Shown: piece by piece, positions 2,923 through 34,643 of the stretch
Numbering within the stretch: position 1 is the first letter of the stretch
How the letters are laid out: each line of letters starts with the position of its first letter
Source of the DNA: Patescibacteria group bacterium
GTDB lineage: Bacteria > Patescibacteriota > Minisyncoccia > JAHISW01 > Tagabacteraceae
Direction of reading: 5' to 3'
Assembly (NCBI GenBank): GCA_042577045.1
Contig: JBHPEK010000004.1
Location: 1-46,545, forward strand
Length of the DNA: 46,545 nt
Program-made: the position numbers and the translations under genes
The notes under the pieces: generated by a model
What the model was told of the DNA's origin: nothing
What the model saw: only the letters and a program-made list of their open reading frames with translations
Databases searched by the model: none

Positions 2923-3921
2923 ATGGCAAAACCAAAAAAACCACCAAAAACCACTGGAGATGACCTAAGTGTTATTTTAGATGGCATTAAGTCAAAGTAT
3001 GGAGAAGGCGCTATAATGAAATTAGGGGAAGCAAAGAAGGTTGATGTTGATGCTATTCCAACTGGTTCTATTGCTCTTGATGCGGCATTAGGTGTTGGAG
3101 GATTACCTCGCGGTCGGATTATTGAAATTTATGGTCCAGAGTCTTCTGGGAAAACCACGCTGGCTTTACATGTAGTGGCTCAGGCGCAGAAAAAAAATGG
3201 CTTGTGTGCTTTTGTTGATGCCGAACACGCTATGGATCCAGAGTATGCAAAGAAATTAGGAGTGAAAGTGAACGACTTGTTGATTTCTCAACCGGATACA
3301 GGTGAACAAGCTTTGGAAATAACGGAAAGTTTGGTTCGCTCGGGTAAGCTTGATGTGATTGTAATAGACTCTGTGGCTGCTCTTACCCCGCGCGCTGAAA
3401 TAGAGGGAGAAATGGGGGATTCTCACATGGGCTTGCAGGCCCGTCTAATGTCTCAAGCGCTTCGTAAACTTACAGCTATTGTGTCTAAATCTAAAACCGT
3501 GGTTATTTTTATAAACCAAATTAGAATGAAGATCGGTGTGGTGTTTGGAAATCCAGAAACAACACCAGGAGGAAAGGCTTTGAAATTTTATTCATCAGTA
3601 AGGATTGATATTCGTAGAATTGCTCAAATTAAAAAAGGAGATGATATAATTGGCAATCGTACGCGCGTTAAAGTAGTTAAGAACAAAACAGCTGCACCTT
3701 TTAGGGTTGCCGAGTTTGACCTTATTTATAACGAAGGTATCTCACCTTTCGGCGAGATTTTAAATCTTGGTGAAAAGTATGGGATTATTAAAAAATCTGG
3801 AGCATCTTATTCGTATGAAAATACTAAACTAGGAGTTGGATATGAAAAAGCTAGGAACTTCTTGAAAGAAAATCCTAGCATTTCCAAAGAGTTAGTTAAA
3901 AAAATTAAGGAAGAACTCTAA
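2923..3921 (+). CDS. recA: Recombinase RecA
   Basis: GPESSGKTT, 'DAEHAMDP', '[23 protein letters not shown]'. Confidence 0.99.
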
Positions 3922-5625: not shown

Positions 5626-6508
5626 ATATTAGGAACTCTATAATGTCGCCGTCTTTTACAACGTAGTCTCTACCCTCGGTACGCAGAAGCCCTTTTTCGC
5701 GCGCCCTGAACCACAAGCCTTGCTTGGGTTCAGGGCAAGTATTTTTAATTGTCGAGAAGTCGTCAAAACTTAAAACTTCAGCCCTAATAAATTTTTCTTG
5801 AAAATCACTATGGATTTTACCACCAGCCTCGGGGGCATTGAGTCCGTTTTTTAGAGATGAGGCGCGTAATTCTTTTCCACCTTTTATTGTATAAAAAGTT
5901 AACAACCCGAGTGTTTTATAAGAAAGTTTTATGACTTCGTTTATTTTTGGTTTTAATTCCAGTTCTTTCAGCTCCTCTGTATTCATTTCTGACATTTCAA
6001 GTTCTAATTTAAAATCTAATTCTAAATCACAATTTTCAAAATCTTTATTATCTCCTTCAGATTTAATGTTACAAACTTTTATCAAAGGTTTTTGTGTCAA
6101 TTCTTCACTTTTTAATTTTAGTTCGTTTTTTATAATTTCAAAATCACGAGACGGGTCTATTTCATTTTCAATATGTATGATTTTTTTATTTTCAAAGCAT
6201 CTGATTACCAAAAGAATAGCATCAACAGTATAAATGTAAGAGAGGAACTGATTACCAAGGCCTTCGCCTTTATGCGCACCTTTTACAAGTCCAGCAATGT
6301 CTACAAATTCAACAACAGCTGGAATTATTTTTTCTGGTTTTACAATTTCAGCAATTCTTTCAAGTCGCTTGTCTGGAATTGTGGCAATTCCAACATTTGG
6401 ATCAATAGTACAGAATGGATAGTTTGAAATATTCACCTTCTTCTGTGTAATAGCCTGAAAAAGTGTTGATTTTCCCACATTTGGTAGTCCTACAATTCCT
6501 ATCTTCAT
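5624..6508 (-). CDS. ychF: Redox-regulated ATPase YchF (Obg family), short form
   Basis: GLPNVGKST, 'NYPFCTIDPN', 'DIAGLVKGAHKGEGLGNQFL', C-terminal 'EGRDYVVKDGDI'. Confidence 0.95.
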   Translation of the reverse strand: MKIGIVGLPNVGKSTLFQAITQKKVNISNYPFCTIDPNVGIATIPDKRLERIAEIVKPEKIIPAVVEFVDIAGLVKGAHKGEGLGNQFLSYIYTVDAILLVIRCFENKKIIHIENEIDPSRDFEIIKNELKLKSEELTQKPLIKVCNIKSEGDNKDFENCDLELDFKLELEMSEMNTEELKELELKPKINEVIKLSYKTLGLLTFYTIKGGKELRASSLKNGLNAPEAGGKIHSDFQEKFIRAEVLSFDDFSTIKNTCPEPKQGLWFRAREKGLLRTEGRDYVVKDGDIIEFLI

Positions 6509-20911: not shown

Positions 20912-21796
20912 ATGAAAAATTTAGATAAAACTCTAATTTTATTAGTTGCATCTTTTGTTGCAATTGCGCTTTTTTTCTTTTTTTCAATAAAAATTATCGG
21001 AGCGCAAGAGGACACAAAAACATTTGTAATTGCAACTGTTAATGTTCAAAATGCTGAAATTTTGTCACAAGAGGAGAATAATTTTAAATTAGCTTTTGAT
21101 ATTACAAATAGAGTTGGTGTTCAACCGGGGATTAAATATATGGTTCGCCTTTTTAGTTCTAAGGGAGGATTATTTGATGAGAAAATTTACGATGAAACTA
21201 TTGATTTAAAAGAGGGTGACAGTATTCATAAAGAAATAGATTACGTTGCCCCAGATTCTTTAAATGGCGAATTCAAGGTTTTTATTATTAGTGAAAACTC
21301 TGTGGGTTTGTCTTTGGGAGGCGCGTTAGCGGGTGATGTTACGCTCAATGGAGATGGAGGTTCTGAAATTAGTCCTACTAATTATGATTCTGATGATTAT
21401 TCAGCTAAAGTTCAAAACTTGATTTTAGATAAAGATTTTTATTCAAAAGGAGATACTGCAAAGCTTTCTGTTACTTGGTTTGCTCGAGAAGATTTTGAAA
21501 AAGTAAATTTGCAGGTAAGTGTTGAAGATTGTTCAAATGTTTTTAGTAAAGAGATTTTAAAAGAAGATTTTGTTCCGATAATTGATGTTGAAATTCCTAT
21601 TATTAAGGATTGTAGAGATCCTCAAGTAAAAATTACTTTATTTGGTCCCGATAATAGTTCTTTAGATCAAACTGATTTTGGTGTTGTTACTGAATCTACC
21701 CCAGATTCTTCTGGGCAAGGATATGTATATGCAATAATCTTTATTGTTCTAATTGTGATTATTGGTTTAATAATCAAAAATAAAAAAGATGAATAA
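20912..21796 (+). CDS. Exported/membrane hypothetical protein
   Basis: N-terminal signal/TM, beta-rich middle, C-terminal TM and basic tail; overlaps the next start. Confidence 0.75.
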   Translation: MKNLDKTLILLVASFVAIALFFFFSIKIIGAQEDTKTFVIATVNVQNAEILSQEENNFKLAFDITNRVGVQPGIKYMVRLFSSKGGLFDEKIYDETIDLKEGDSIHKEIDYVAPDSLNGEFKVFIISENSVGLSLGGALAGDVTLNGDGGSEISPTNYDSDDYSAKVQNLILDKDFYSKGDTAKLSVTWFAREDFEKVNLQVSVEDCSNVFSKEILKEDFVPIIDVEIPIIKDCRDPQVKITLFGPDNSSLDQTDFGVVTESTPDSSGQGYVYAIIFIVLIVIIGLIIKNKKDE

Positions 21797-24700
21797 AATT
21801 TTAATATTTTTTGTTATTTTGTTGGCAGGATTATCTATTGGACCTTTGATGGTAAAAGCGGACACAGTAGCAATTACGGGCGATTTTTATAATTGCTGGC
21901 CACAATCGGGGACGAATACTTTTACGTTTAATTTGGACGAGTCTACTTATGTGGAGGGTGAGAATATGGAGGCGACATTACTTTCTCCTCCGTATATTCC
22001 GTGTGATGATATTGGGAATTCTCCAAATCTTTGTCCTGATATTTTAATGCTCGAAATCGGGGTGATCTGGGGGGTTGATCTTGAGAATTTTATGCTAAAT
22101 GGTGGCCTTGCTGGCTACGAGCCTGCAGATTTTTATTGTGGGACTGTGGATATCCCGACTCCTCTAATTTCAAATTCTCCCGCTCCTTCTGTTTCAGGAA
22201 ATTATAACGTTTCGGGGTTGATTGGCTACGGGGGGCTCGAAGAAGAAGACTGTTTTGATCCAGAAGATCCAGATACGTGGTATGGATGTCCACCAGAAGG
22301 CGTGATTTCATCTGGTAATCTTTCTATTTCTATATCAGTTCTCCCTGCTATTCCTACAAACATCACAGCAACAGAAAGCACTTGTGGACAAGTAAATTTG
22401 ACTTGGGATGATAATTCTAATGGAGAAGATGGATTCTATATAATTAGAAGACAATCCACTCCAACTAGTGGCAGTTATTCAACGATCGCCACGGTTGGAG
22501 CAAATGTAGAAAGTTATGTTGATACAAACGTAGAAGATGGCGCTGGATATTTTTATAGAGTAAGGGCCTATGATAGTGAATCAGGAGAAAACCCGAGTAA
22601 TAATAGCAATATTTATTATGATGGAATAGAAATAGCTGGGTGTCCTATATGCACAATAAATCTTGGTGTTTCTCCATCTGGTGCTGGTTCAGCCAGTGTT
22701 ACATCAGGAGACGAATCATATTATTGCGGAGATGGAAATACTTCTTTTGTTACAGCTTCTGAGAGTTCTGGGTATACCTTTTCAGGTTGGGATTCTACGG
22801 GAGATGGTAATGTAAATTATTCTGGTAACCCTCTAGAAGTTAATCATACTGCAACTAAGAATATTACAGCGTTGTTTACGGCGATCCCCATTACCGTCTC
22901 TGTTACTGCTACGACTCCATACAATATAGTTCCAAGCACAGCCATTTCTTTCGAGCATACTCCGTATACCAACATTGGATCAACACAATGTGCTTTAGTG
23001 GATTACAGGGCAGACATTTATCATGCATTGACTAGTTGGTCAACAGCTAATCCAATAGTCTATGGGTCTATAAGTACTCCTGGCTCTACTGATTATTACA
23101 TCATATGTAAAAATACCACATCTGGCACGATGGCAACTTCAAACAAGATTGTTGTGAACACAATAGGTCCTCCAACATTAAATGTATCAATAAGCCCAAG
23201 TCCAATAGTTGAGGGTGATTCAACTACACTAACATGGGATTCAGAGGATGCAACCAGTTGTACAGGTGATGGTGGTAATTCGATTACTTTGGATGGTAGC
23301 TTAACTTGGTCTCCTCCAGAAACAAGGACATTGACTTTGAATTGTACGGGCATAGGAGGAGATATTTCAGATAGTGCTACGGTCACTGTAAATCCAGCCG
23401 TCTATGACTGCGGACGTTGTAGTACTACCTATAATTATACTTGGGCAGAATTTCAAACAACTGATTCGGCTTGTGTTAATATAATTCCAGGAAGTGTTGT
23501 TTACAGCTGTAATTCATCTTGTGAAGAGGGTTATCTACTATATGATAGCTGTTGCATATCTACTTATGGCAACCCTTGTACCTCGGACCCTAACGTCTGT
23601 GGACAAACCGATACTGGAACAATTAACTGTGGTGGTGCATGTACAGCAAGTACTCCATCGGATGCTTCCTGTTCTGTTGATGGCGGATGGAGTGATTGGT
23701 CTTCTTGGGATTCTTGTTCAGTAGATTGTGGTGGTGGAACTCAAACAAGAACTAGAACATGTACAAATCCTGCGCCTGCTTATGGCGGAGCCGAATGTGT
23801 AGGAGCTTCTTCAGAGAATCAAGACTGTAATATACAAGCGTGTACTCTTAGTACGACCTTATCAGCCACACCATCTTCAGGAACGGCTCCATTAAATGAT
23901 GTTGATCTTACGGCTGATGTTAGTGGAACTGCTATTGGTACTATTAATTATACTTTCTATTGTAATCGTTCTGATACTGGTACGAATATTACAGAACCAT
24001 ATGACGCTAAATATGACGGAACCAATGATGACCCGAAAACAGCGACTGACGTTTGCGATTATGAAACAAGCGGTGGCTACACAGCTAAAGTTATTGTGGA
24101 AAGAGGAACAGCTGATCCTGCTGAAGCAAGACAGGCAATAACTGTTGATTGTGCATATGGGGCAGGTGATATTTGTTATTCAGATCCAAATTCCTGTGGT
24201 AGCAGATATCAAGGAATTGTTTCGTGCGGTGGGAGTTGCTCTGTGGGAAGCACACCACCACCAGACAGTGAGTGCACACCAACCAAGCCATCAAGTCTTG
24301 ATGCAGACGCCGGAGCTTGTGGAGAAATAGATTTAGAGTGGACAGATAATTCAGACAATGAAGATGGTTTTAAGATAGAAAGAGCGGCGGGTGCTAGTGG
24401 AATATATAATCAAATAGACACAGTTGGCGCAAATGTAATAATATATACAGATTCTGATTCTGCATTAGAGAGTGGAGTTAATTATGACTATAGAGTGAAA
24501 GCATATAATAGTACTGGTGGTGATTCTGATTATTCAAATAAGGCAAATGATACGGTGGTCGGGTGTACTTTGAGTGTTACACTTTTGGCCACTCCCTCGT
24601 CAGGAAACGCACCGTTGAACAACGTAGACTTAACTGCTTCTGTAAGTGGAACTGAAACAGAAACTATCAACTATACTTTCTATTGTAATAAAAATACTGG

Positions 24701-25577
24701 AAATACTATTCCTGACAATGAACCCGACCATGACTTTAAGATAGACGGAACAGATATCAACCCGTATGAAAAACTAGATTTGTGTGATTATTCAACAGAT
24801 GGAACATATACAGCGAAGGTTATTGTAGAAAGGGGAAGTTCAGCTCCTGCAACTGAAGATAGGCAGACTATTACAGTGGCAAACAATATTCCTACGGCAA
24901 CAGAATTACAAACAAGTAGTGGAGGCTATTGTACGTCTCCGTATCAGAGTTTTTCTTGGACGTATTCTGATTCTGACGGAAATCCTCAAAGTCAGTTCCA
25001 ATTTCAAGTAGATAATAATAGTAATTTTAATACGCCGGCAGTGAACAGGTGTGGCGATTTGCAAGAACCTGTTGGAGATAGTTGTCCTGTTCCAGGAAGT
25101 CTTTCAAATGATCCTCCAGCTCCAAATAATCAAACTGTTACTATAGCTGTTTTTCCTGGAGACAATCAAATTGGTTATAACGATACTTATTATTGGAGGG
25201 TGAGAGTTTATGATTCTACTGGTCAGGAGTCTGTATGGGTAGAAGGAACACCAGTAACAACCGCCGACCACATATATCCCACCTTAGATTTTAGGTGGGA
25301 ACCAGAAACAGTTCACAAAGATGAAGATATTTCTTTTTTTGATGAGTCAGTTGTTGACTACTCAGGACCATTTGCACCTGCTTGGACCTGGACCTTTGCA
25401 GATGGCGTCCCAATAAATTCTTCTGCACAAAATCCAACAGATATACAATTTGTTTCCACAGGATTGAAGCAAGTAAGTCTTCAGGTTACAGATTCCGATG
25501 GATATAGTTGTCCATCTTCGGATGATGTTAATGTAAAAATTAATTTACCCACGTGGATAGAGGTTCTTCCAGAATAA
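21789..25577 (+). CDS. Large secreted Cys-rich surface protein with FN3, thrombospondin type-1 and PKD-like domains
   Basis: Signal peptide; two 'L.W.DNS..EDGF.I.R...Y.YRV.AY' FN3 repeats; TSP1 'WSDWSSW..CSVDCGGG...RTRTC'; C-terminal 'WTWTF.DG...NP' PKD-like. Confidence 0.85.
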   Translation: MNKILIFFVILLAGLSIGPLMVKADTVAITGDFYNCWPQSGTNTFTFNLDESTYVEGENMEATLLSPPYIPCDDIGNSPNLCPDILMLEIGVIWGVDLENFMLNGGLAGYEPADFYCGTVDIPTPLISNSPAPSVSGNYNVSGLIGYGGLEEEDCFDPEDPDTWYGCPPEGVISSGNLSISISVLPAIPTNITATESTCGQVNLTWDDNSNGEDGFYIIRRQSTPTSGSYSTIATVGANVESYVDTNVEDGAGYFYRVRAYDSESGENPSNNSNIYYDGIEIAGCPICTINLGVSPSGAGSASVTSGDESYYCGDGNTSFVTASESSGYTFSGWDSTGDGNVNYSGNPLEVNHTATKNITALFTAIPITVSVTATTPYNIVPSTAISFEHTPYTNIGSTQCALVDYRADIYHALTSWSTANPIVYGSISTPGSTDYYIICKNTTSGTMATSNKIVVNTIGPPTLNVSISPSPIVEGDSTTLTWDSEDATSCTGDGGNSITLDGSLTWSPPETRTLTLNCTGIGGDISDSATVTVNPAVYDCGRCSTTYNYTWAEFQTTDSACVNIIPGSVVYSCNSSCEEGYLLYDSCCISTYGNPCTSDPNVCGQTDTGTINCGGACTASTPSDASCSVDGGWSDWSSWDSCSVDCGGGTQTRTRTCTNPAPAYGGAECVGASSENQDCNIQACTLSTTLSATPSSGTAPLNDVDLTADVSGTAIGTINYTFYCNRSDTGTNITEPYDAKYDGTNDDPKTATDVCDYETSGGYTAKVIVERGTADPAEARQAITVDCAYGAGDICYSDPNSCGSRYQGIVSCGGSCSVGSTPPPDSECTPTKPSSLDADAGACGEIDLEWTDNSDNEDGFKIERAAGASGIYNQIDTVGANVIIYTDSDSALESGVNYDYRVKAYNSTGGDSDYSNKANDTVVGCTLSVTLLATPSSGNAPLNNVDLTASVSGTETETINYTFYCNKNTGNTIPDNEPDHDFKIDGTDINPYEKLDLCDYSTDGTYTAKVIVERGSSAPATEDRQTITVANNIPTATELQTSSGGYCTSPYQSFSWTYSDSDGNPQSQFQFQVDNNSNFNTPAVNRCGDLQEPVGDSCPVPGSLSNDPPAPNNQTVTIAVFPGDNQIGYNDTYYWRVRVYDSTGQESVWVEGTPVTTADHIYPTLDFRWEPETVHKDEDISFFDESVVDYSGPFAPAWTWTFADGVPINSSAQNPTDIQFVSTGLKQVSLQVTDSDGYSCPSSDDVNVKINLPTWIEVLPE

Positions 25578-27889: not shown

Positions 27890-30800
27890 ATGAATAGTTT
27901 TTTAAAAAATAACTTTAAAATTATCTGTTTTATTGTTTTTTTGAGTGTTTTTTCTTTTTCAATTTTTATTGATTATTCTAGTGCGCAAGGCAAGGGTGGC
28001 GGACAAGAAGTGAACTTAGTTTTAAGTCATATCGAATGCGCTGAGGAGCAAGGGCAGGTTGAATTCCATTTTGTTGTTAATCACCTTGATAAAGATGCTA
28101 GTGATTTTGGCACGGTTAGCTACACAGTTAATAGTCAAAATTTTACGGCGGATTTTGATAAGCTTACAGGCAAAACTGCTCATTATTTAAGCTATATTTC
28201 CTATACGAGCTCCAGCTATGATGTTTCCAGTGCAAGCGTGACTGTTGAGGGAGAAGCCTTAACTTTGCACAACCTACAAAATAAAGAATTATCCTGCCAA
28301 ACAGAGGTAGACCTATCTATTTCTAAAACAGTTGATAATGCAAGCCCCTCCGCAGGCGATACAATCACTTATACAATAACTGTGCAAAACAACAGTAGCT
28401 TTGGCACAGAAAATGTTATTGCCGAGGATCAACTGCCTGCTGGAATTACTTATCAATCACACAGCACCTCGCAGGGTAGTTATGATCAAGGAAGTGGTGC
28501 GTGGAATATAGGACAGCTAAACGACTCTTCTTCTGCCACGCTTGATATTACTGTTTTAGTTGACGATTCTTCTGCGGGTATGGATATAGAAAATGTTGGA
28601 AGTGTTGTTTCTTCAGATACGCCGGATTCATCTTTGGAAAACAATTATGATGATGCGCTTATCACAATAAGCTTTATTGCGCCAGTTGCCCATGACGATG
28701 ATTATTCAGTTGATGAGGATGAAATTCTGCATATTGATGCTCCAGGTCCTTTATCTAATGATGAACATATTGACCAAGGGGCAATTACCGCTGTTATTGC
28801 CAATCATCCATCTCATGGAGAAATAACTTTTCATGACAGTGGAGAATTTACATACACGCCTGCAGAAGATTATAACGGCACAGACAGTTTTACTTATGAA
28901 GTTTGTGGGGATCACTCTTTGTGCAATACAGCAACCGTGGCGATTACAATTAATTCTGTTAACGATGCGCCCGTAGCAAGTGGTGATTTGGCTACTACTG
29001 TGGAAGGTCAGCCGGTCACGATAAATGTTATACATGATGACCACGACGTAGATGATAATTTAGACCCGTCTTCTGTATCTATTGTTGATTTACCTACGAA
29101 TGGCATCGCGGTACCAAATACAGATGGAACTGTTGTTTATACTCCAAATGATGGTTTTGTGGGAACAGATATTTTTACTTATAGTGTGTGTGATACAGAA
29201 GGCCTGTGTAGTGAAGTATCTTCCGAAGTATCAGTTTTGGTTTTAAGCGAAGAAGGAGCTTCGTTGATTGCTGTTGGTGATCTTACTACTATAGATGAAG
29301 GATCTTCAGCGATAATTTCTGTTTTGCTTAATGATATATATACGGGCGAAGGCGAACTTTATCTTGACTCAATTTTAGAATCCCCAACACATGGCGAGAT
29401 TACTATAAACGAAGGTGGGACTATTACTTATACACCAGAGGAAGATTTTTTTGGCACAGATTATTTTACTTATGTTGTTTGTGATAATCTAGATCCACAA
29501 ATTTGCGCCGAATCAGATGAAGGGACTATTACAGTAAATGGCGTCAATGATGCTCCGATTGCAAATGATGATGTTGTTGCTATTGAAGAAAACGAGACAA
29601 TAGTTATCCATGTTACCCATGATGATATTGATATGGACAACAACCTAGACGAAACTTCACTTTCTTTGGAAAGTAGCCCAAGCAGTGGTACTGCCGAAGC
29701 ACACATTGATGGAACCATCTCTTACACACCCCACAAAGATTACACTGGAAGCGACGAATTTATGTATAAAATTTGCGATGAAGGAGAAATGTGCGATACA
29801 GCGAGGGTCTCTGTTTCAATTATAGGAGCAGTTCATGCGCCTACGGCAAACAATGACTATATTTCTGTAATTGGTAGCGAATCCGTCCAAATAAATGTTT
29901 TAGAAAATGATGAGAGTGAAAGTGGTAATTTATATGTAGACAGGATTTTGAATGATGCTCTTTTCGGAACATCTGTTTTAAATGGCGACAATACGATTAC
30001 GTATACGCCAAATGAAGAATATTATGGGGAGGATGAAATTGTATATATTGCTTGCTCTGAACCTGATGTTTGCGCTCAAGCGGAAATATTTATTACGGTA
30101 AGCGAAATGAATCATGCGCCAGAGGCCCATGATGATATTGCTAGTACTTTCAAAAACGAAACTGTTGTTATTAATGTTATCCATGATGATATTGATGTAG
30201 ATAATAATATAGATCCATCTTCTGTTTCTATAACAAGTGGTGTTATGAATGGCAGGCTTACCGAAAATGATGATGGAACAATTTCTTATACTCCTGATCC
30301 AGGTTTTGGCGGAACAGATACTTTTAAATATAAAGTTTGTGACACAGATGGTTTGTGTAGCGAAGTTCACGCTACTGTAGAGGTGTCGGTAATAGAAAAA
30401 CCCAAGACTAATACTAGTGGTTCGGGTGGTGGAGGTGGGGGGTCTTCCATCGTCGTTCCTATAGGAATAGATGACGAAGGGAGTGTTTTTCGTCATGAAG
30501 TTTTACTAGTTGATCCACTGGCGAATGATTTGCCACTCAATAGTTCATATTTGTTTGTTTCTCGTATTTCGTATGAGCCACTTTATGGAACGGTTGAAAT
30601 AAATGAAGATAATACTATTTCTTATTTTCCAGACGGAGAGTATGTTGGAGTAGACAGATTTGATTATGTAGTCTGTGATTCAAGGGTAAGCAGGCTTTGT
30701 TCGGACGCTGAGGTGGTAGTTACTGTTTCTGAGGATGACACAGCGCCGATTGCTCAAGATGATTTTGTGAGTGTTCATGAAAATGGCTCAGCTGAAATTG

Positions 30801-31597
30801 ATGTGTTAATAGATGATTTTGATTTGGAGAAAAATATTGATACGGAAACTTTAAAAATAATTTCTTTCCCAACAAACGGAACGGCAAAAATAACAGATAG
30901 TGGAATTATAATGTATACAGCAAATGAAAATTTTGTTGGACTGGATGGGTTGGAGTATTTAGTTTGTGATACAGAAGATAAATGTGACACCGCAACAGTC
31001 ACTTTTGATGTTTTTGCAGGTAATCATTTGTTGGATGCCGAAGGACACAAAGAATGCGAGGACTATTTAAAAAAGTATATTAAGATTGGCGCAGAAAATG
31101 ATTATGAGGAAGTTAAAAAAATGCAAAAATTCTTAATTTTCTATGAAAATAGGATGGACGCCGATATGAATGGAATTTTTGACCAACATCATTGTGACAT
31201 TGTGCTTGAATTCCAAAGTAAATATGCAGAAGATATTTTAGAGCCATGGGGATTAGAAAAACCTACTGGTTATGTTTACGAAACAACAATTAAAAAAATC
31301 AATGAACTTTATTGTTTTGCATCCTGCCGCCCTTATTTAACTGACTTCATAAAATACAGGGGGCAAAATGATGCAAATCAAGTTAAAAAGCTTCAAAAGT
31401 TTTTGAAAGATTATGAGGGGCACGAAGGAGTTGTAGAAACCGGCATTTATGACAAAATAACTTACGATGCAGTGTTAAATTTTCAGAAAAAATATTCTAA
31501 GGACATTTTGGGCTACTGGAGCTTGGCACAACCAACCGGGTATGTTTATAAAACAACAGTAAAAAAAATAAACGAACTTTATTGCAAGAATAAGTAG
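27890..31597 (+). CDS. Large surface protein: DUF11-like domain, tandem ~95-aa Ig/cadherin-like repeats, two C-terminal peptidoglycan-binding-like repeats
   Basis: Signal peptide; 'DLSISKTVD...GDTITYTITV.N'; repeated 'NDAP.A..D...YTP...F.GTD.F.Y.VCD'; two copies of 'VKK.QKFL...G.FD....V..FQ.KY..DIL..W.L..PTGYVY.TT.KKINELYC'. Confidence 0.88.
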   Translation: MNSFLKNNFKIICFIVFLSVFSFSIFIDYSSAQGKGGGQEVNLVLSHIECAEEQGQVEFHFVVNHLDKDASDFGTVSYTVNSQNFTADFDKLTGKTAHYLSYISYTSSSYDVSSASVTVEGEALTLHNLQNKELSCQTEVDLSISKTVDNASPSAGDTITYTITVQNNSSFGTENVIAEDQLPAGITYQSHSTSQGSYDQGSGAWNIGQLNDSSSATLDITVLVDDSSAGMDIENVGSVVSSDTPDSSLENNYDDALITISFIAPVAHDDDYSVDEDEILHIDAPGPLSNDEHIDQGAITAVIANHPSHGEITFHDSGEFTYTPAEDYNGTDSFTYEVCGDHSLCNTATVAITINSVNDAPVASGDLATTVEGQPVTINVIHDDHDVDDNLDPSSVSIVDLPTNGIAVPNTDGTVVYTPNDGFVGTDIFTYSVCDTEGLCSEVSSEVSVLVLSEEGASLIAVGDLTTIDEGSSAIISVLLNDIYTGEGELYLDSILESPTHGEITINEGGTITYTPEEDFFGTDYFTYVVCDNLDPQICAESDEGTITVNGVNDAPIANDDVVAIEENETIVIHVTHDDIDMDNNLDETSLSLESSPSSGTAEAHIDGTISYTPHKDYTGSDEFMYKICDEGEMCDTARVSVSIIGAVHAPTANNDYISVIGSESVQINVLENDESESGNLYVDRILNDALFGTSVLNGDNTITYTPNEEYYGEDEIVYIACSEPDVCAQAEIFITVSEMNHAPEAHDDIASTFKNETVVINVIHDDIDVDNNIDPSSVSITSGVMNGRLTENDDGTISYTPDPGFGGTDTFKYKVCDTDGLCSEVHATVEVSVIEKPKTNTSGSGGGGGGSSIVVPIGIDDEGSVFRHEVLLVDPLANDLPLNSSYLFVSRISYEPLYGTVEINEDNTISYFPDGEYVGVDRFDYVVCDSRVSRLCSDAEVVVTVSEDDTAPIAQDDFVSVHENGSAEIDVLIDDFDLEKNIDTETLKIISFPTNGTAKITDSGIIMYTANENFVGLDGLEYLVCDTEDKCDTATVTFDVFAGNHLLDAEGHKECEDYLKKYIKIGAENDYEEVKKMQKFLIFYENRMDADMNGIFDQHHCDIVLEFQSKYAEDILEPWGLEKPTGYVYETTIKKINELYCFASCRPYLTDFIKYRGQNDANQVKKLQKFLKDYEGHEGVVETGIYDKITYDAVLNFQKKYSKDILGYWSLAQPTGYVYKTTVKKINELYCKNK

Positions 31598-31622: not shown

Positions 31623-31659
31623 TTGGGACTACACGATACCGAGTATCGTGTAGTTGTGT
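31623..31659 (+). repeat. 37-bp palindromic direct repeat, left boundary of the DGR cassette
   Basis: ttgggactacacgataccgagtatcgtgtagttgtgt, identical to 34607-34643. Confidence 0.93.
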
Positions 31660-31699: not shown

Positions 31700-31727
31700 T
31701 TGACAAATTATGTGGTTCGTGTATAAT
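31700..31727 (+). promoter_or_regulatory. Sigma70 promoter of the DGR target gene
   Basis: TTGACA-16 nt-TATAAT. Confidence 0.7.
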
Positions 31728-31903
31728 ATGGGTTAGAATCTAAATTAGTGAAAAGAACTTTAAAATAAATTACTTGCAAGACATTGGTCACAGCCAAAAG
31801 GTGTTTAATTATAGACACTTCCTGGCTGTGACCACAATGGTTAAGCCCCTTATCTCACGGGTAGTGAGGAAACTATCAGCGAACAGCTGAAAGGAGAGAA
31901 ATC

Positions 31904-32515
31904 ATGAAATACGGTGAATTGAATTTCGGACAAGTGGAAGCAATCGTCAACAAGCTCGGTGGTATGGAGGGAGTTGATCGCTTTCTCCGCGGAGAAACCA
32001 CGATCTCCGAACCGGAGCACTCTTGGCGCGAACAAGACGGCGTAATCTACTTCTCGGTCACCAGCGACGGTACAACCGGTGAGGAATGGATCAAGCGTCT
32101 GGAAAGCAAGGGCTTCCGCGTAAGCGACTACGCCAAAAGCGTACTGCGTTCCTCGGACTTCAGGCCGACCGATGGAGTGAAGACCGAAATCGTTGTTCTT
32201 AAGGGAATGCTGTTCTCGGACAAGAATCGTGTAACGAAGAAGATCCGTGCCGAGGCCGACAAGCGAAAGCTCACCAAGCCGAACACCGAAGTCGCTTGTC
32301 TCATCCGTGAGAAGTTTACGGATGAGGAAATCGAAGCCATGGGTCTCTGGGGGATCGTCGCAATGCACGAGCCCATCAAGGATTCCGACGGTGATCCGAA
32401 CCTGCTCCTCGCGCTCCGGTATGGTGGCGGCAGGTGGCTCTACGCGTTTTGCGACTACCCTGGCCTCAGGTGGTTTCGTGGGCACGGGTTTGCCTTCGTC
32501 GCTTCGCAAGTATAG
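31904..32515 (+). CDS. DGR target (variable) protein, probable C-type-lectin-like C-terminus
   Basis: SD AAGGAG; 3' end carries the VR and ends in 'GFAFVASQV'; no signal peptide or TM seen; fold is inferred. Confidence 0.9.
   Translation: MKYGELNFGQVEAIVNKLGGMEGVDRFLRGETTISEPEHSWREQDGVIYFSVTSDGTTGEEWIKRLESKGFRVSDYAKSVLRSSDFRPTDGVKTEIVVLKGMLFSDKNRVTKKIRAEADKRKLTKPNTEVACLIREKFTDEEIEAMGLWGIVAMHEPIKDSDGDPNLLLALRYGGGRWLYAFCDYPGLRWFRGHGFAFVASQV
32383..32509 (+). repeat. DGR variable repeat (VR)
   Basis: 127-bp ungapped match to 32821-32947 with 18 mismatches, all opposite a TR adenine. Confidence 0.96.
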
Positions 32516-32541
32516 CGCTTAGCACTTTGACACTTAGTCCT

Positions 32542-32572
32542 AATCCCTATGTACCTTTGGTACATAGGGATT
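32542..32572. promoter_or_regulatory. Perfect hairpin downstream of VR (DGR target-recognition stem-loop and/or terminator)
   Basis: aatccctatgtacc-ttt-ggtacatagggatt, 14-bp stem, followed by a T run. Confidence 0.75.
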
Positions 32573-32820
32573 TTTTTGATAAAATAAAAATGGTACTAGG
32601 TGAATATGCGGACGGTAACGGCTTTCCGCTACCGAATCCAGTAATATGACAGATCGAGAATATTTCTGGCCACGGCTTGAAACAGAGTGATCTGTATGAA
32701 CTTTCAAAAAAGAAAATACTTGGTGTAAGATACTGGAGTATTTTAGATACCAAATAATATTCAGTCTTGAGATCGTTATGTGACTTCTATGGACAGTGGC
32801 ACAGAGGGTGTCTTACACAT

Positions 32821-32947
32821 TTCCGACGGTGATCCGAACCTGCTCAACGCGAACCGGAATGATGACGGCAGGTGGCTCAACGCGTATTACGACAACCCTG
32901 ACAACAGGTGGAATCGTGAGAACGGGTTTGCCTTCGTCGCTTCGCAA
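32821..32947 (+). ncRNA. DGR template repeat (TR)
   Basis: AAC/AAT-rich invariant copy of the VR (reads N A N R N D D ... in the VR frame). Confidence 0.95.
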
Positions 32948-32964
32948 CTCTTTTTTTTCTCTCC

Positions 32965-33312
32965 CTATTTGGGAGAGTTTTGTTTTGTTACGCTCCCATA
33001 CCATCCTCCGAGCATTTTTCCAATGCTGTCTAACTTTAATGAGAGAGCGATGTATTTTTTGTTGTCTAAAGTCTTAGTCTCCCAAAGAATCATTAGTAAG
33101 ATTTTCAATGTATCTAATTTCCGTATGGCGAGGCGAATATATGGTGCCTTTTCATTTTGTTTTAAAAAACTAGCGAAAGAAACTATTTCGATAGCATCGA
33201 TGAAATACTTATCTATTTTTTTACCCAGAGAGTGCCTGTGTAATTTAGGTAGATCTTTATAATAAGTAAACCACAACAAATATATCTCTTTTAACCTTTG
33301 CAACACTGGCAA
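32965..33312 (-). CDS. avd: Avd-like four-helix-bundle accessory protein
   Basis: Basic 115-aa helical protein, 'LPK..R.SLG..I', C-terminal 'IGKMLGGW'; lies between TR and RT; true start uncertain because of the G11 tract. Confidence 0.85.
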   Translation of the reverse strand: MPVLQRLKEIYLLWFTYYKDLPKLHRHSLGKKIDKYFIDAIEIVSFASFLKQNEKAPYIRLAIRKLDTLKILLMILWETKTLDNKKYIALSLKLDSIGKMLGGWYGSVTKQNSPK

Positions 33313-33343: not shown

Positions 33344-34366
33344 ATGAGAAAGATTTTTATTCATACTTATAATGATATCATTTCTGTCGAAAATTTACTC
33401 GAAGGTTGGAGTGAATTTTTAGGGGGTAAACGTTCACGTGATGATGTACAGAAGTTTGAACAAAATTTGATGTTGAACATTATTGACTTACACAATGTTC
33501 TTGTTAATAAGACATATAAACATTCTAAGTATGAAGCTTTTAATATATCCGATCCTAAGCCACGAAATATACATAAAGCAAAGGTGAGAGATAGGTTATT
33601 GCACCATGCTATTTATAGAAAACTGTACCCGTTTTTTGATAGTAAGTTTATTGCTGATTCTTATTCTTGCAGAAATGAAAAAGGAACACATAGGGCAATA
33701 AACCGTTTAAGAGATTTTACACGTATTGTTTCCAAGAATAATACGAAGACAGTTTGGGTTTTAAAATGTGATATAAGGAAGTTTTTTGCCAGTATTGATC
33801 ACGAGGTTTTAATTAAAATTATCAACAAGTACATTTTAGACAAACAAATTATCTGGTTGTTGTCCGTAATTATAAGAAGTTTTCATGCAACAGAAAGAAA
33901 TGTTGGTTTACCGTTGGGCAACTTAACTTCACAATTGTTCGTAAATATATATATGAATGAATTCGATCAATTTATGAAGCATAAAATTAAAGCAAAATAT
34001 TATATCCGATATGCTGATGATTTTGTGATATTGTCTCATTACAAGGATTGGCTTGAGTTATTATTGCCACAAATAAAAACTTTTCTCAGCGAAGAACTAA
34101 AATTGGAATTACATCCGAAAAAAGTATCAATAGAAACTATTGCATCAGGAGTAGATTTTCTTGGGTGGATTCATTTTCCTAGGTACAGGATATTAAGAAC
34201 GGTGACAAAGAGACGTATATTTCGTGGGATACAAGACAAAAACGCGAAACCTAAGACTGTCCAGTCTTATCTTGGTTTAATAAGTCATGGTAATAGCAAA
34301 AAGATACAACAAAAGATAGAAAATTTTATTTGCGAAATTAACTCATTCTATTTTGTTGAAAAATAA
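33344..34366 (+). CDS. DGR reverse transcriptase
   Basis: 'PKPRNI', 'RDRLLHHA', 'LKCDIRKFFASIDH', 'GLPLGNLTSQ', YADD, 'DFLGW'; 340 aa with no maturase or endonuclease extension. Confidence 0.96.
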   Translation: MRKIFIHTYNDIISVENLLEGWSEFLGGKRSRDDVQKFEQNLMLNIIDLHNVLVNKTYKHSKYEAFNISDPKPRNIHKAKVRDRLLHHAIYRKLYPFFDSKFIADSYSCRNEKGTHRAINRLRDFTRIVSKNNTKTVWVLKCDIRKFFASIDHEVLIKIINKYILDKQIIWLLSVIIRSFHATERNVGLPLGNLTSQLFVNIYMNEFDQFMKHKIKAKYYIRYADDFVILSHYKDWLELLLPQIKTFLSEELKLELHPKKVSIETIASGVDFLGWIHFPRYRILRTVTKRRIFRGIQDKNAKPKTVQSYLGLISHGNSKKIQQKIENFICEINSFYFVEK

Positions 34367-34392: not shown

Positions 34393-34430
34393 AATGAGAC
34401 ACCATAAAACACCTATTATGGTGTCTCATT
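34393..34430. repeat. Perfect 15-bp inverted repeat after RT
   Basis: aatgagacaccataa-N8-ttatggtgtctcatt. Confidence 0.8.
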
Positions 34431-34606: not shown

Positions 34607-34643
34607 TTGGGACTACACGATACCGAGTATCGTGTAGTTGTGT
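34607..34643 (+). repeat. 37-bp palindromic direct repeat, right boundary of the DGR cassette
   Basis: Identical to 31623-31659. Confidence 0.93.

Follow-up and report, generated by a model that had tools for sequence, protein, structure and literature searches.

The window, that is the whole stretch of 46,545 nucleotides that was analysed, almost certainly carries a diversity-generating retroelement (DGR) of architecture B3, formed of a template repeat (TR), a reverse-strand avd gene and a reverse transcriptase (RT) gene. Taken as a whole, the region is very probably a complete chromosomal DGR of the CPR (Patescibacteria) type, in which a target gene with its variable repeat (VR) is followed by the TR, the reversed avd and the RT gene, and which would work as proposed in the Discussion. 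The genome (579 kb, 81% complete) contains a second DGR of a different type on another contig. In DGRs in general, the TR is copied into cDNA with errors opposite adenines, and the VR is replaced. The genes and repeats of the element in the window are the following.

31904 to 32515, plus strand: target (variable protein) gene, 203 aa, an ORF with the VR at its C-terminus
32383 to 32509, plus strand: VR, last 42 codons of the target (codons 160 to 202 of 203), member of the repeat pair
32821 to 32947, plus strand: TR, member of the repeat pair, ending with a 23-nt A-free GC-rich run
32965 to 33312, minus strand: avd (accessory variability determinant), 115 aa, TTG start, antisense to the TR and RT, identified by NF033474 and PF22296
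33344 to 34366, plus strand: DGR reverse transcriptase, 340 aa, intact, with RVT_1, LGNLTSQ and YADD

Adenine-restricted changes in the VR

A repeat search of the window aligned VR and TR over 127 nt without gaps, at an offset of 438 and with 86% identity, which ends abruptly on either side. The pair described in the first-pass annotation was recovered with identical coordinates. The recount also agrees with its figures for the mismatches: 18 of the 31 TR adenines are altered in the VR (A>T 9, A>G 5, A>C 4), every mismatch being an A in the TR copy, and the non-A positions are the same in 96 out of 96 cases, realignment of the 127 nt giving no non-A mismatch. The probability that 18 of 18 mismatches land on the 31 A among 127 positions is 6e-14 (hypergeometric). 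In the frame of the target ORF, 14 VR codons are changed, all non-synonymously and without a stop, including AAC>CTC three times (32408, 32414, 32465) and AAT>TTT once (32474), as had been claimed before. The residues newly present in the VR are L (three), Y (three), G (four), F (two), C (one) and H (one).

Close to the TR end, the A-free GC-rich run (32923-32945) is the same in the VR, and the homology stops 2 nt beyond it; this run is a candidate IMH-like homology anchor and the putative 3′ limit of mutagenesis. The TR itself, situated between avd and the terminator of the target gene, is non-coding, and the ORFs overlapping it have no family match. Scanning the genome for additional VRs by BLAST with the TR gave none beyond the known pair, the only other hit of the search being a 19-nt match attributed to chance.

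The same bias was found in 33 related loci, which were retained if they had an Avd match, an RT match beginning before residue 30 and a target alignment reaching at least residue 198. These loci and the window contain 605 TR/VR mismatches in total, 550 of them at a TR adenine; without locus L031, set aside because its ungapped alignment was off, the numbers are 554 and 532. That the two copies are an ordinary duplication or a gene-conversion tract with an A-bias arising by chance has a negligible probability: this is ruled out by the P value of the A-restriction, by the adjoining RT and Avd genes, and by the recurrence of the pattern in these 33 and in 16 other cassettes. The mutagenic retrohoming proposed in the first-pass annotation is supported by independent parts that it had not cited, namely a DGR-type RT, Avd, the location of the VR at the 3′ end of the ORF and the 33 related loci.

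Genes encoding the DGR reverse transcriptase and Avd

In DGR RTs, the motif of group II introns is replaced by the signature [LIV]GxxxSQ, and the catalytic YxDD is present. The RT of the window begins 397 nt downstream of the TR and forms a 340-aa open frame with LGNLTSQ and YADD, which matches RVT_1 at 6.7e-26. Its best solved relative is 8ub7_A, a 328-aa 'Reverse transcriptase' (E 2.1e-40, residues 10-310), while retron and group II RTs match at E 2e-19, around 20 orders weaker than 8ub7. No curated DGR-RT model of NCBIfam matches the protein, the top row being a group II model below its cut-off. A group II intron (TIGR04416, 157.6 versus a cut-off of 300) and a retron (St85 model, 58.2 versus a cut-off of 235) were both rejected, the Rfam search giving no intron and no retron RNA family match.

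Avd is present in most but not all DGRs. Here, the protein matches NF033474 DivGenRetAVD at 6.1e-15, covering positions 1-103 of 104 with 55.4 bits, below the cut-off of 80, and PF22296 bAvd with 40.8 bits versus a cut-off of 40; the search of its sequence against solved structures gave no match. The avd gene occupies the same place, on the minus strand, in every related cassette. Judging from the taxonomy, the RT would belong to 'DGR clade 2' as outlined in the accessible part of Roux et al. 2021 (PMC8144416).

A large family of probably lectin-like target proteins

The target has no Pfam or NCBIfam match but 2182 relatives at E ≤ 1e-3, the best 120 of these 2182 being 68-86% identical. Between genomes it is 70-76% identical where RpoD is only 56-69% identical, and the columns that are hypervariable in the family alignment correspond to A-containing TR codons. 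The family is very large, strongly conserved and wholly unannotated, and consists of small soluble, probably lectin-like proteins of Patescibacteria. With no signal peptide or membrane segment and a maximum Kyte-Doolittle(19) value of 0.49, the target is apparently a stand-alone, cytoplasmic, soluble protein. [quoted passage not shown] (PMC8144416).

The AF2 model of the target has a pLDDT of 82 and a pTM of 0.73. Comparison of this model by VIA-align listed nearly exclusively CLec-fold chains, the top rows having Z values of 5-6.7; the chains listed include the Bd2740 C-terminal domain (6.7), EgtB (6.5), PvdO (6.0), TvpA (6.0, 140 residues aligned) and Mtd (4.6). Residues ~40-203 of the target thus probably form a C-type-lectin fold, a membership that is probable and not proven because Z values below 8 are middling by the tool's own scale. 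Foldseek with the model against the PDB gave nothing below E 0.25, the PDB sequence search yielded two chance-level rows only, and the ESM Atlas returned 'hypothetical protein' clusters only, the nearest named ones being <0.9.

Conserved transcription signals surround the target gene

Several signals were located around the target gene and at the limits of the cassette.

31623 to 31659 and 34607 to 34643, no strand assigned: left and right copies of a perfect direct repeat of 37 nt, a palindromic hairpin, bracketing the cassette, from the repeat search
31700 to 31727, plus strand: target promoter, TTGACA, 16 nt, TATAAT, matching the consensus at 12/12 positions
31735 to 31903, plus strand: structured 5′ UTR of the target mRNA, with a long hairpin, a second hairpin and a third just before the ribosome-binding site, conserved in 73 loci
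32542 to 32579, plus strand: intrinsic terminator of the target gene, 14-bp stem and T-run, with compensatory changes across relatives
34393 to 34430, plus strand: terminator-like hairpin after the RT gene

The −35 and −10 boxes of the target are conserved across 73 aligned upstream regions; conservation begins there and none is seen further upstream. In the 5′ UTR, RNAalifold on 30 loci predicted 13 pairs, all with compensatory changes, and no Rfam match was obtained at E ≤ 1. This structured 5′ UTR goes unmentioned in the accessible portions of PMC5758913, PMC8144416 and the Handa preprint; Table S1 and Figures S1/S3 of Wu et al. (UVR1-6, B3 examples) may list the target family. The 37-nt repeats were considered as attachment sites or a target-site duplication and rejected as such: their 24-nt core occurs 6 times in the genome and is therefore a dispersed palindromic element, not specific to the cassette. 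The two flanking copies share 13 extra bases beyond this core.

A conserved structured leader precedes the TR

Upstream of the TR, the comparison of related cassettes revealed a promoter element followed by a folded RNA domain.

32577 to 32585, plus strand: extended −10 box TG-n-TAAAAT of the TR RNA, with TATAAT at the same place in relatives (33 cassettes aligned)
32590 to 32820, plus strand: structured leader of the TR RNA, defined by RNAalifold, covariation and model R1
32592 to 32639, plus strand: leader helix H1
32648 to 32696, plus strand: leader helix H2
32708 to 32722, plus strand: single-stranded A-rich leader strand ending ACTTG
32723 to 32734 with 32807 to 32818, plus strand: leader helix H3, ending 2 nt before the TR
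32737 to 32751, plus strand: leader helix H4
32764 to 32794, plus strand: leader helix H5

From the position of the −10 box, we infer that transcription of the TR RNA starts near 32592. RNAalifold on 28 cassettes predicted 87 pairs in the leader, 44 of them with compensatory changes; 96.8% of the cells are paired versus 36-48% in slid controls, and 0/500 shuffles reached the observed value. Helix H3 is 98.5% paired, with compensatory changes in 9 of its 12 pairs. The leader helices were recovered in an independent scan of 49 cassettes. Folded as a single sequence, the TR RNA of the window gives an unremarkable z of −1.36 and recovers the comparative structure only in part. Helices internal to the TR, which RNAalifold had also drawn, were dropped, compensatory changes being found in only 3 of their 25 pairs.

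Model R1 scores the window leader at 187.5 bits, with all helices able to form, and finds the leader in 25 of 150 other sampled genomes of the same phylum. At the 16 weaker-scoring loci that were examined, a TR with an A-biased VR partner lies 1-29 nt after the leader and is followed by a minus-strand avd in all 16; the RT comes next in 15 of them and is full length in 13, and 14 have no tblastn similarity to the target of the window. The Rfam scan gave no match for the leader. One candidate, the RT-7 RNA (RF03028), reached 22.5 bits over 52 nt of the window versus a gathering score of 116.8 and was judged a chance hit; RT-7 had no match in 12 related loci at the gathering threshold, nor in locus L019 at E ≤ 10. 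A structured leader 5′ of the TR is not described for CPR DGRs in the available portions of PMC5758913, PMC8144416, PMC8867640 and the Handa preprint (10.1101/2023.10.23.563531), whose supplementary lists may bear on this point.

Possible pairing of the leader with the 3′ end of the TR

Two elements were delineated at the 3′ end of the TR.

32945 to 32959, plus strand: proposed template-side strand pairing with leader 32708 to 32722, 12/15 standard pairs in the window
32957 to 32987, plus strand: hairpin and T-run directly after the TR, overlapping the avd stop codon, 4/6 pairs compensatory

The GAGTTTT..TTT tail of the hairpin is nearly invariant among related cassettes. This hairpin is the predicted terminator of the TR RNA and possibly also an Avd-binding stem-loop. 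The proposed duplex between the leader strand and the TR end is 79.9% paired in register versus 41-51% in slid controls. Cognate strands pair with −7.05 versus −5.39 kcal/mol for non-cognate ones over 45 distinct pairs, and with −8.12 versus −4.9 kcal/mol over 21 divergent pairs (0/5000 permutations in each case), values in which the A/U-richness of both strands and the relatedness of the sequences may still have a share. The duplex is imperfect, 2/15 positions being mismatched in 24-26 of 28 sequences, and contains only 4 compensatory pairs versus 1-3 in slid controls. The homology between TR and VR has its limits (32821 and 32947) at the places where H3 ends (32818) and the proposed duplex starts (32945). 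By analogy with the phage RNP, 32708-32722/32945-32959 would be the template:primer duplex, and G32944 would be the first templating base. A permuted priming geometry of this kind, in which the leader takes the role of the phage 3′ spacer, is a proposal to which we give slightly less than an even chance. Another pairing, of the leader A-tract with the U-tract after the hairpin, was discarded, as it consists of two short stacks in low-complexity sequence that are not mutually antiparallel.

We searched for the elements that other DGRs carry 3′ of the TR. In 207/278 DGRs, Handa et al. found a putative stem-loop for Avd binding shortly after the TR, and they predicted stop duplexes formed by sequences upstream and downstream of the TR, CPR DGRs included (10.1101/2023.10.23.563531, accessible text). 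A stop duplex of this type had no supported pairing in our scan of 49 cassettes, where no stack of at least 4 pairs with more than 2 compensatory ones joins the leader or the TR to the 260 nt that follow the TR; such elements may be listed in Table S3 of Handa et al. A same-strand structured spacer between TR and RT was not found either: the interval is made of the hairpin and T-run, then of antisense avd, with no covariation with the TR or the leader. Likewise, Rfam RT-10 (the phage spacer motif) gave no match in the window at E ≤ 1.

These data bear on what the leader does and where priming occurs. We consider it likely that the leader is part of the template RNA. Its place in the 5′ part of a transcript that needs terminator read-through to reach the RT would also suit a regulatory RNA instead of a scaffold for cDNA synthesis, acting either as an attenuator or riboswitch for read-through of the post-TR terminator into the RT, or as an antisense regulator of avd; the target 5′ UTR is likewise structured and conserved, so that structured leaders may be a general habit of these cassettes. 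However, the leader always abuts the TR (1-29 nt in 16/16 divergent cassettes, within 2 nt here), the TR/VR homology has its edges at H3 and at the proposed duplex, and the order of the elements mirrors the phage RNP. A purely regulatory leader is accordingly judged unlikely, the two roles being in any case compatible with each other. Less probable still is priming in the order of the Bordetella phage, with an RNA that reads through the hairpin, avd-antisense sequence serving as the 3′ spacer, and the complementarity between leader and TR end being a by-product of A-rich and U-rich composition. The stem-loops and the upstream/downstream stop duplexes of Handa et al., in what is accessible of their text, point that way, as does the modest in-register support for the duplex of leader and TR end. 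Against this, the ~12 nt just upstream of the TR pair with the leader in H3 with strong covariation and are therefore not free to pair downstream; the 49 cassettes show no supported stack reaching into the 260 nt after the TR, and the near-invariant T-run after the hairpin is typical of termination.

Probable recent activity of the element

The element has probably been active recently enough for no neutral change to appear in the VR, as suggested by the comparison of the two repeats. This agrees with the identity of all 96 non-A positions and with RT and avd frames that are both intact. When public sequencing runs were matched to the window, the best share of words was 0.12 and the next 0.06; run contigs aligned at 85% likeness were relatives, 85-95% alike, with one at 95-99% and none at 99% or more, and none of the public runs contains the strain of the window.

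A stretch of ~21 nt that its closest relatives have immediately 3′ of the VR is missing from the window, and with it a small hairpin retained in most cassettes (80% paired, 4/5 pairs compensatory). Efficient homing in the Bordetella phage requires a hairpin at that place (Wu et al., PMC5758913), and the loss seen here would count against the present efficiency of the element. This loss also speaks for a relic DGR, the parts of which would still be readable while retrohoming has stopped or become very inefficient, the VR being frozen at its last state. Decay of the cassette is indeed common: among 80 related loci, 5 retain the leader with a partial avd or RT, 5 the leader only, and 27 are target genes without a cassette within at least 2.4 kb, four of five genomes with such solo targets having no RT match at E ≤ 1e-10 with the RT of the window as query. 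Nevertheless, both frames are intact here with the catalytic motifs present, the leader scores 187.5 bits with all its helices able to form, and the identity of every non-A position, synonymous sites included, would be short-lived without homing or gene conversion. A relic is for these reasons rather unlikely, and recent activity is the reading that we retain.

Discussion

We propose the following working of the element. The target gene would be transcribed from its own strong promoter and end at its own terminator. A separate RNA of ~395 nt would start near 32592 and comprise the ~230-nt folded leader, the 127-nt TR and the hairpin with its U-tract, as deduced from the conserved signals; the same signals suggest that read-through of the hairpin would give the RT message, antisense to avd. 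Most 3′ ends of the TR RNA would then fall at 32980-32987, and read-through would be minor. Following the general DGR model, RT and Avd would copy the TR into cDNA with misincorporation opposite adenines, and this cDNA would replace the VR. As changes are restricted to the 31 TR adenines, of which 30 occupy codon positions 1-2, ~18 residues would be re-drawn, on the ligand-binding face of the lectin-like fold. By analogy with the RNP of the Bordetella phage, the leader may take the role of the 3′ spacer, H3, 2 nt before the TR, being the stop duplex, and the strand just 5′ of H3 may pair with the final 3 nt of the TR plus the ~12 nt beyond, which would place the TR 3′ end for priming.

More generally, we tentatively suggest, as a reading that falls just short of the balance, that the B3 template RNA corresponds to the DGR RNA of the Bordetella phage in a permuted order. 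Its protein-binding, stop and priming elements would be gathered in a ~230-nt 5′ domain, with H3 as the stop duplex and the ACTTG strand pairing with the TR 3′ end, and the RNA would finish at the post-TR hairpin and U-tract. The leader would then represent an undescribed RNA family, occurring in about 1 in 6 sampled Patescibacteria genomes and tied to TR-(avd)-RT whatever the target. If this is true, the priming scheme resolved for a single phage also exists in a permuted form, and the leader may reveal how copying begins in this class. The leader offers a concrete, testable RNA for the in vitro reconstitution of a CPR DGR. The element is one more example of a class described between 2017 and 2021, and a DGR that can be read exactly from its letters alone. 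A 0.58-Mb genome with two DGRs of unlike architecture shows the share of a minimal genome that is given to targeted hypervariation, and the ligand of the target matters for the biology of Patescibacteria episymbionts.

CPR/Patescibacteria DGRs of the same kind were reportedly found by Paul et al. in 2017. Wu et al. 2018 define B3 as TR-(avd)-RT, an architecture that makes up 90% of their CPR set (PMC5758913, accessible text). The gene order of the window, with avd reversed, is that of these B3 DGRs, and the architecture shows no difference. As in the window, they are chromosomal, reside in ultra-small genomes and have A-specific TR/VR differences mostly at AAY codons; their targets, like that of the window, are without recognisable domain, signal peptide or membrane segment.

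For the target itself, the comparison is with TvpA of Treponema denticola (2y3c), to which the predicted fold of residues ~40-203 aligns over 140 residues with Z 6.0 and an rmsd of 3.7. In TvpA and other FGE-type CLec variable proteins, the VR lies at the C-terminal end, as it does here. The identity to TvpA is, however, 9%, the target of the window has no lipoprotein or secretion signal, and it is much smaller, its 203 aa corresponding essentially to the bare fold plus a 39-residue helical N-terminus.

With the DGR of the Bordetella phage BPP-1 (mtd-avd-TR-spacer-brt), the element shares the RT family, Avd and adenine mutagenesis, and also a C-terminal VR in a fold that is here probably lectin-like. 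It differs in its target, a small soluble protein in place of a tail fibre, and in avd, which lies on the other strand between TR and RT and therefore leaves no same-strand structured spacer 3′ of the TR. In contrast to the phage, the structured RNA stands 5′ of the TR in a permuted order, and the TR RNA is preceded by a −10 box of its own and finishes in a terminator-like structure. Within the bRT-Avd-RNA particle (RNP) documented in the preprint (10.1101/2023.10.23.563531), a duplex of ~12 bp borders the TR on its 5′ side, as proposed here for H3; in both RNAs, this duplex is followed on one strand by a stem-loop and unpaired adenines, and a second duplex involves the TR 3′ end. For the phage, Handa et al. 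saw no rescue of the stop duplex. The order of strand, duplex strand, short stem-loop and unpaired adenines in the window corresponds to Sp47-56, Sp59-70, Sp71-78 and Sp79-81 of the phage spacer.

A complete DGR cassette with adenine-specific variation

A repeat search of the window returned a 127-nt pair of 86% identity, 32383-32509 (the variable repeat, VR, in the 3′ end of the target gene) and 32821-32947 (the template repeat, TR), at exactly the offset of 438 reported in the first-pass annotation. Base-by-base recounting gave 18 mismatches, each at an A of the TR copy (A>T 9, A>G 5, A>C 4). The TR holds 31 adenines, and realignment produced zero non-A mismatches (96/96 non-A positions identical), so that the adenine-only pattern first described, with 18 of 31 TR adenines changed, held in full. 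The probability that 18/18 differences land by chance on 31 A among 127 positions is 6e-14, and identity breaks off sharply at both edges. The VR forms the final 42 codons of a 203-codon ORF (31904..32515) and the TR is non-coding. In this frame, 14 codons are changed, all non-synonymously and with zero stops (including AAC>CTC three times and AAT>TTT once), as had been annotated; 30/31 TR adenines fall at codon position 1 or 2. The proposed genome scan for more VRs was carried out on the assembled genome and yielded none for this TR.

The following features accompany the repeat pair:

31700-31727, + strand, target promoter, perfect TTGACA-16-TATAAT
32542-32579, + strand, strong target-gene terminator, adjoining the extended -10 box
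32577-32585, + strand, extended -10 box TG-n-TAAAAT (TATAAT in relatives)
32957-32987, + strand, hairpin and T-run directly after the TR, overlapping the avd stop codon
32965-33312, - strand, avd (accessory variability determinant), between TR and RT, TTG start, antisense
33344-34366, + strand, reverse transcriptase (RT), 340 aa, RVT_1 (6.7e-26), motifs LGNLTSQ and YADD

Among solved structures, the RT is closest to a 328-aa protein named ‘Reverse transcriptase’ (8ub7 and eight sister entries, E 2.1e-40), which we take to be the Bordetella phage bRT; retron-type and group II RTs scored 2e-19. Avd matched NCBIfam DivGenRetAVD over its full length (6.1e-15) but under the curated cut-off, and Pfam bAvd with 40.8 bits against a cut-off of 40. 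With RT, Avd, TR and a VR-bearing target found, every canonical DGR part is present and intact, and the earlier reading of the pair as a product of mutagenic retrohoming stands. The transcription signals suggest that the TR has an RNA of its own, ~395 nt long, from about 32592 to about 32985, and the RT would be expressed by read-through past the post-TR hairpin, antisense to avd.

The window is an entire 46.5-kb contig of a 579-kb genome (24 contigs, 81% complete) and also encodes rpoD, tRNAs and a Ham1-family gene, which indicates a chromosomal and not a phage setting. Two very large probable surface proteins are encoded just upstream of the cassette (21789-25577 and 27890-31597). One (1262 aa) contains TSP1, fn3 and PKD domains, and the other (1235 aa) combines eight Big_9/cadherin-like repeats with DUF11 and a peptidoglycan-binding domain. 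The entire cassette lies between two identical copies of a 37-nt direct repeat (31623-31659 and 34607-34643), which is itself a palindromic hairpin; its 24-nt core has six genome copies (C1, C4 three times, C14 twice), and an extra 6 + 7 bases are common to the two cassette-flanking copies only.

The order TR-(avd)-RT, parentheses denoting the reverse strand, is the architecture ‘B3’ in the scheme of Wu et al. 2018 (PMC5758913), and a DGR clade restricted to Patescibacteria is described by Roux et al. 2021 (PMC8144416). We fetched 80 related loci via the target family and searched them by tblastn; wherever avd was detected downstream of the target, it was a minus-strand gene located between TR and RT. 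A TR/VR pair occupies the same place in 33 filtered related loci and the window, with 550 of 605 mismatches at TR adenines (532 of 554 if L031 is left out, because an indel in this locus spoils the ungapped alignment). Given the B3 layout and the same TR/VR placement in relatives, the window adds one member to a known DGR class: it is a textbook CPR-type DGR of an already known kind.

A second DGR, of another type, lies on contig C6 of the same 0.58-Mb genome, where the stretch C6:26206-27981 is locus L003:

C6:27368-27493, - strand, TR, directly upstream of the RT (within C6:26454-27493)
C6:27806-27931, VR, 22 mismatches, all at TR adenines
C6:23026-23147, VR, 24 mismatches, all at TR adenines

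Its mismatches are mostly A>G, its RT (IGNLTSQ and YGDD) directly follows the TR, and one of its target genes runs off the contig end; it has neither an avd nor any match to the leader model R1 described below. A third RT (C17:7876-8502, - strand, RVT_1, 78.6 bits) has near it a 103-nt repeat with mixed mismatches that are not A-specific.

The target protein probably has a C-type-lectin fold

The target has zero matches in Pfam, NCBIfam or PDB sequences. Its family comprises 2182 proteins at E≤1e-3, counted among proteins of 111-356 residues; the best 120 of these are mostly 200-235 aa long, 68-86% identical, and ‘hypothetical’ where named. An alignment of 36 members shows that the N-terminal ~165 residues are strongly conserved and that the hypervariable columns are exactly the TR codons holding A. 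The closest relative among the matches listed (P0002, 86%) shows 13 VR differences from the window's target, all at A-containing TR codons, as would be expected had two close lineages diversified independently.

The AlphaFold model built on this alignment has a pLDDT of 82. Foldseek gave no match below E 0.25, and in a structural alignment against representatives the listed rows were nearly all C-type-lectin-fold chains, covering residues ~40-203:

Bd2740 C-terminal domain, Z 6.7
EgtB, Z 6.5
PvdO, Z 6.0
TvpA (DGR variable protein), Z 6.0, 140 residues aligned
Mtd, Z 4.6

Because these Z values are middling by the aligner's own note, we regard the C-type-lectin fold of residues ~40-203 as probable and not proven. 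Neither a hydrophobic segment (maximum Kyte-Doolittle over 19 residues, 0.49) nor a signal-like N-terminus was found.

Across five cassette-bearing genomes the target is better conserved than the housekeeping sigma factor (70-76% identity to the window's copy, versus 56-69% for RpoD). Between genomes, the cassette proteins are conserved as well as RpoD or better. The target gene (~31900-32520) has 47-64% GC per 100 nt, with ~36% for the contig and ~30% for the RT gene. Strong constraint on the cassette could account for this GC contrast and protein conservation, and horizontal spread of the cassette would fit them as well. A distant target paralogue (216-aa frame) with a VR-like C-terminus was located at C1:62325-62729 (- strand) and is 32% identical to the target at residues 61-199; the assembled genome yielded no TR partner for it.

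Conservation among the related loci starts at the target promoter. The target 5′ UTR (31735-31903) is conserved across 73 loci, cassette-less ones included, and forms three hairpins that show compensatory changes, the last of them just ahead of the ribosome-binding site. It has zero Rfam matches and may be a regulatory RNA.

A structured leader RNA precedes the TR

Sequence conservation across cassettes extends over the ~230 nt (the leader, 32590-32820) that separate the TR from the -10 box. RNAalifold on 28 cassettes predicted 87 pairs, 44 of them with compensatory changes, against 12-18 in controls with partners slid by 1-3 columns; standard pairs filled 96.8% of cells versus 36-48% in these controls, and 0/500 shuffles reached the observed values. 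The covariation support sits in the leader helices (37/56 pairs compensatory) and the post-TR hairpin (4/6), not in the TR-internal helices (3/25). An independent scan of 49 freshly aligned cassettes returned the same helices, with compensatory changes at 5/5 pairs in H1, 6/6 and 6/6 in H2, 10/12 in H3, 4/4 in H4 and 4/4 in H5. The leader is without an Rfam family: the window gave only a 22.5-bit RT-7 match over 52 nt, twelve related loci gave zero matches at gathering thresholds, and a search of L019 at E≤10 brought up no relevant match.

A covariance model of the leader (R1; 221 positions, 55 pairs) found 55 matches in the window and the 80 loci, 28 being its own training rows, a single match in the window's genome, and matches in 25 of 150 other sampled genomes of the same phylum. 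We fetched 16 weaker-scoring places (34-117 bits). All 16 carry avd on the minus strand ~150-300 nt past the leader, and in 15 the RT comes next (>300 residues aligned in 13); similarity to the window's target was absent from 14 by tblastn (E≤0.01). In 16/16, a TR-like sequence begins 1-29 nt past the leader (≤6 nt in 13) and has a 65-140-nt partner in the same locus. Pooled, these pairs hold 284 mismatches, 275 at adenines of the leader-adjacent copy, a bias partly built in because the scoring favoured A-mismatches, which leaves the existence and length of the repeats unaffected. By this gene order, the leader goes with the TR-(avd)-RT module and not with the target. Some genomes hold two or three copies of leader and cassette: one (G075) has three leader matches, and L031 has two (3349-3576 and 5718-5936) in tandem cassettes, of which the upstream one has a broken RT.

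Recent activity and cassette decay

The intact RT and avd frames, the 96/96 non-A identity and the differently diversified VR of a close relative would argue for recent activity. Weighing against full efficiency of the window element is the loss of ~21 nt 3′ of the VR, just past the target stop codon (32510-32545). These nucleotides, which supply one strand of a small hairpin that most cassettes retain, are present in the closest relatives, L005 and an 88%-alike contig of sequencing run X2. The relatives' stretch at this site is rich in CTAAG/CTTAG words, which give stop codons in several frames.

Cassette decay is common in the family. Thirty of the 80 related loci are complete, five have the leader with a partial avd or RT, and five the leader only; 27 lack a cassette (leader, avd, RT) within at least 2.4 kb, and 13 end too early to tell. 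The window RT query found no RT in four of five genomes with solo targets, and in the fifth an RT with an internal TGA. Solo targets in 27/80 loci, together with the lack of an RT match in four of the five such genomes searched, indicate that the target protein persists without the diversifier.

Geometry of the template RNA compared with the Bordetella phage DGR

In the Bordetella phage, as described in the preprint of Handa et al. (10.1101/2023.10.23.563531), the spacer 3′ of the TR contains the primer strand: Sp47-56 base-pairs with TR117-129. Two nucleotides on, Sp59-70 and the sequence immediately before the TR make up the ‘cPRT Stop’ duplex, and a short stem-loop (Sp71-78) and unpaired adenines follow. 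In other DGRs, the stretch considered there reached no further than 40 nt before the TR and 100 nt after it.

In the window's clade, H3 joins the 12 nt that stop 2 nt short of the TR to a strand of the leader ~85 nt further upstream (32723-32734 with 32807-32818; 98.5% paired, 9/12 pairs compensatory). Past H3 on the leader strand come the short stem-loop H4 (32737-32751) and an unpaired stretch with invariant adenines. Directly before H3, a single-stranded segment ending in an invariant ACTTG shows complementarity to the final 3 nt of the TR and the ~12 nt after them. The duplex that we propose here (32708-32722 with 32945-32959) pairs at 12/15 positions in the window. In the main family, the register proposed has 79.9% of its cells paired, versus 41-51% when slid, with four compensatory pairs and two positions mismatched in nearly all sequences. 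In divergent cassettes both strands co-vary, for example from GAAGA/TCTTC to GAAAC/GTTTC, or form quite different duplexes of 7-10 bp. Cognate strands gave a duplex energy of -7.05 versus -5.39 kcal/mol for non-cognate ones over 45 distinct combinations, and -8.12 versus -4.9 kcal/mol over 21 divergent combinations (0/5000 permutations each), statistics that are weakened by sequence relatedness and A/U-rich composition.

H3 would set the stop of cDNA synthesis and the proposed duplex its start; the TR/VR homology edges, 32821 and 32947, coincide with H3 and this duplex, as expected if the two duplexes have these roles. We therefore suggest, with slightly more doubt than belief, that the template RNA could be a permuted version of the Bordetella phage DGR RNA. 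The leader and the geometry it suggests may be new, as a family-wide feature of which the window locus is just one example. The window-clade leader shares with the phage spacer a duplex at the TR 5′ edge followed by a short stem-loop and unpaired adenines; however, the pre-TR segment pairs with the downstream spacer in the Bordetella phage, whereas in the window's clade it pairs with the upstream leader and not with downstream sequence.
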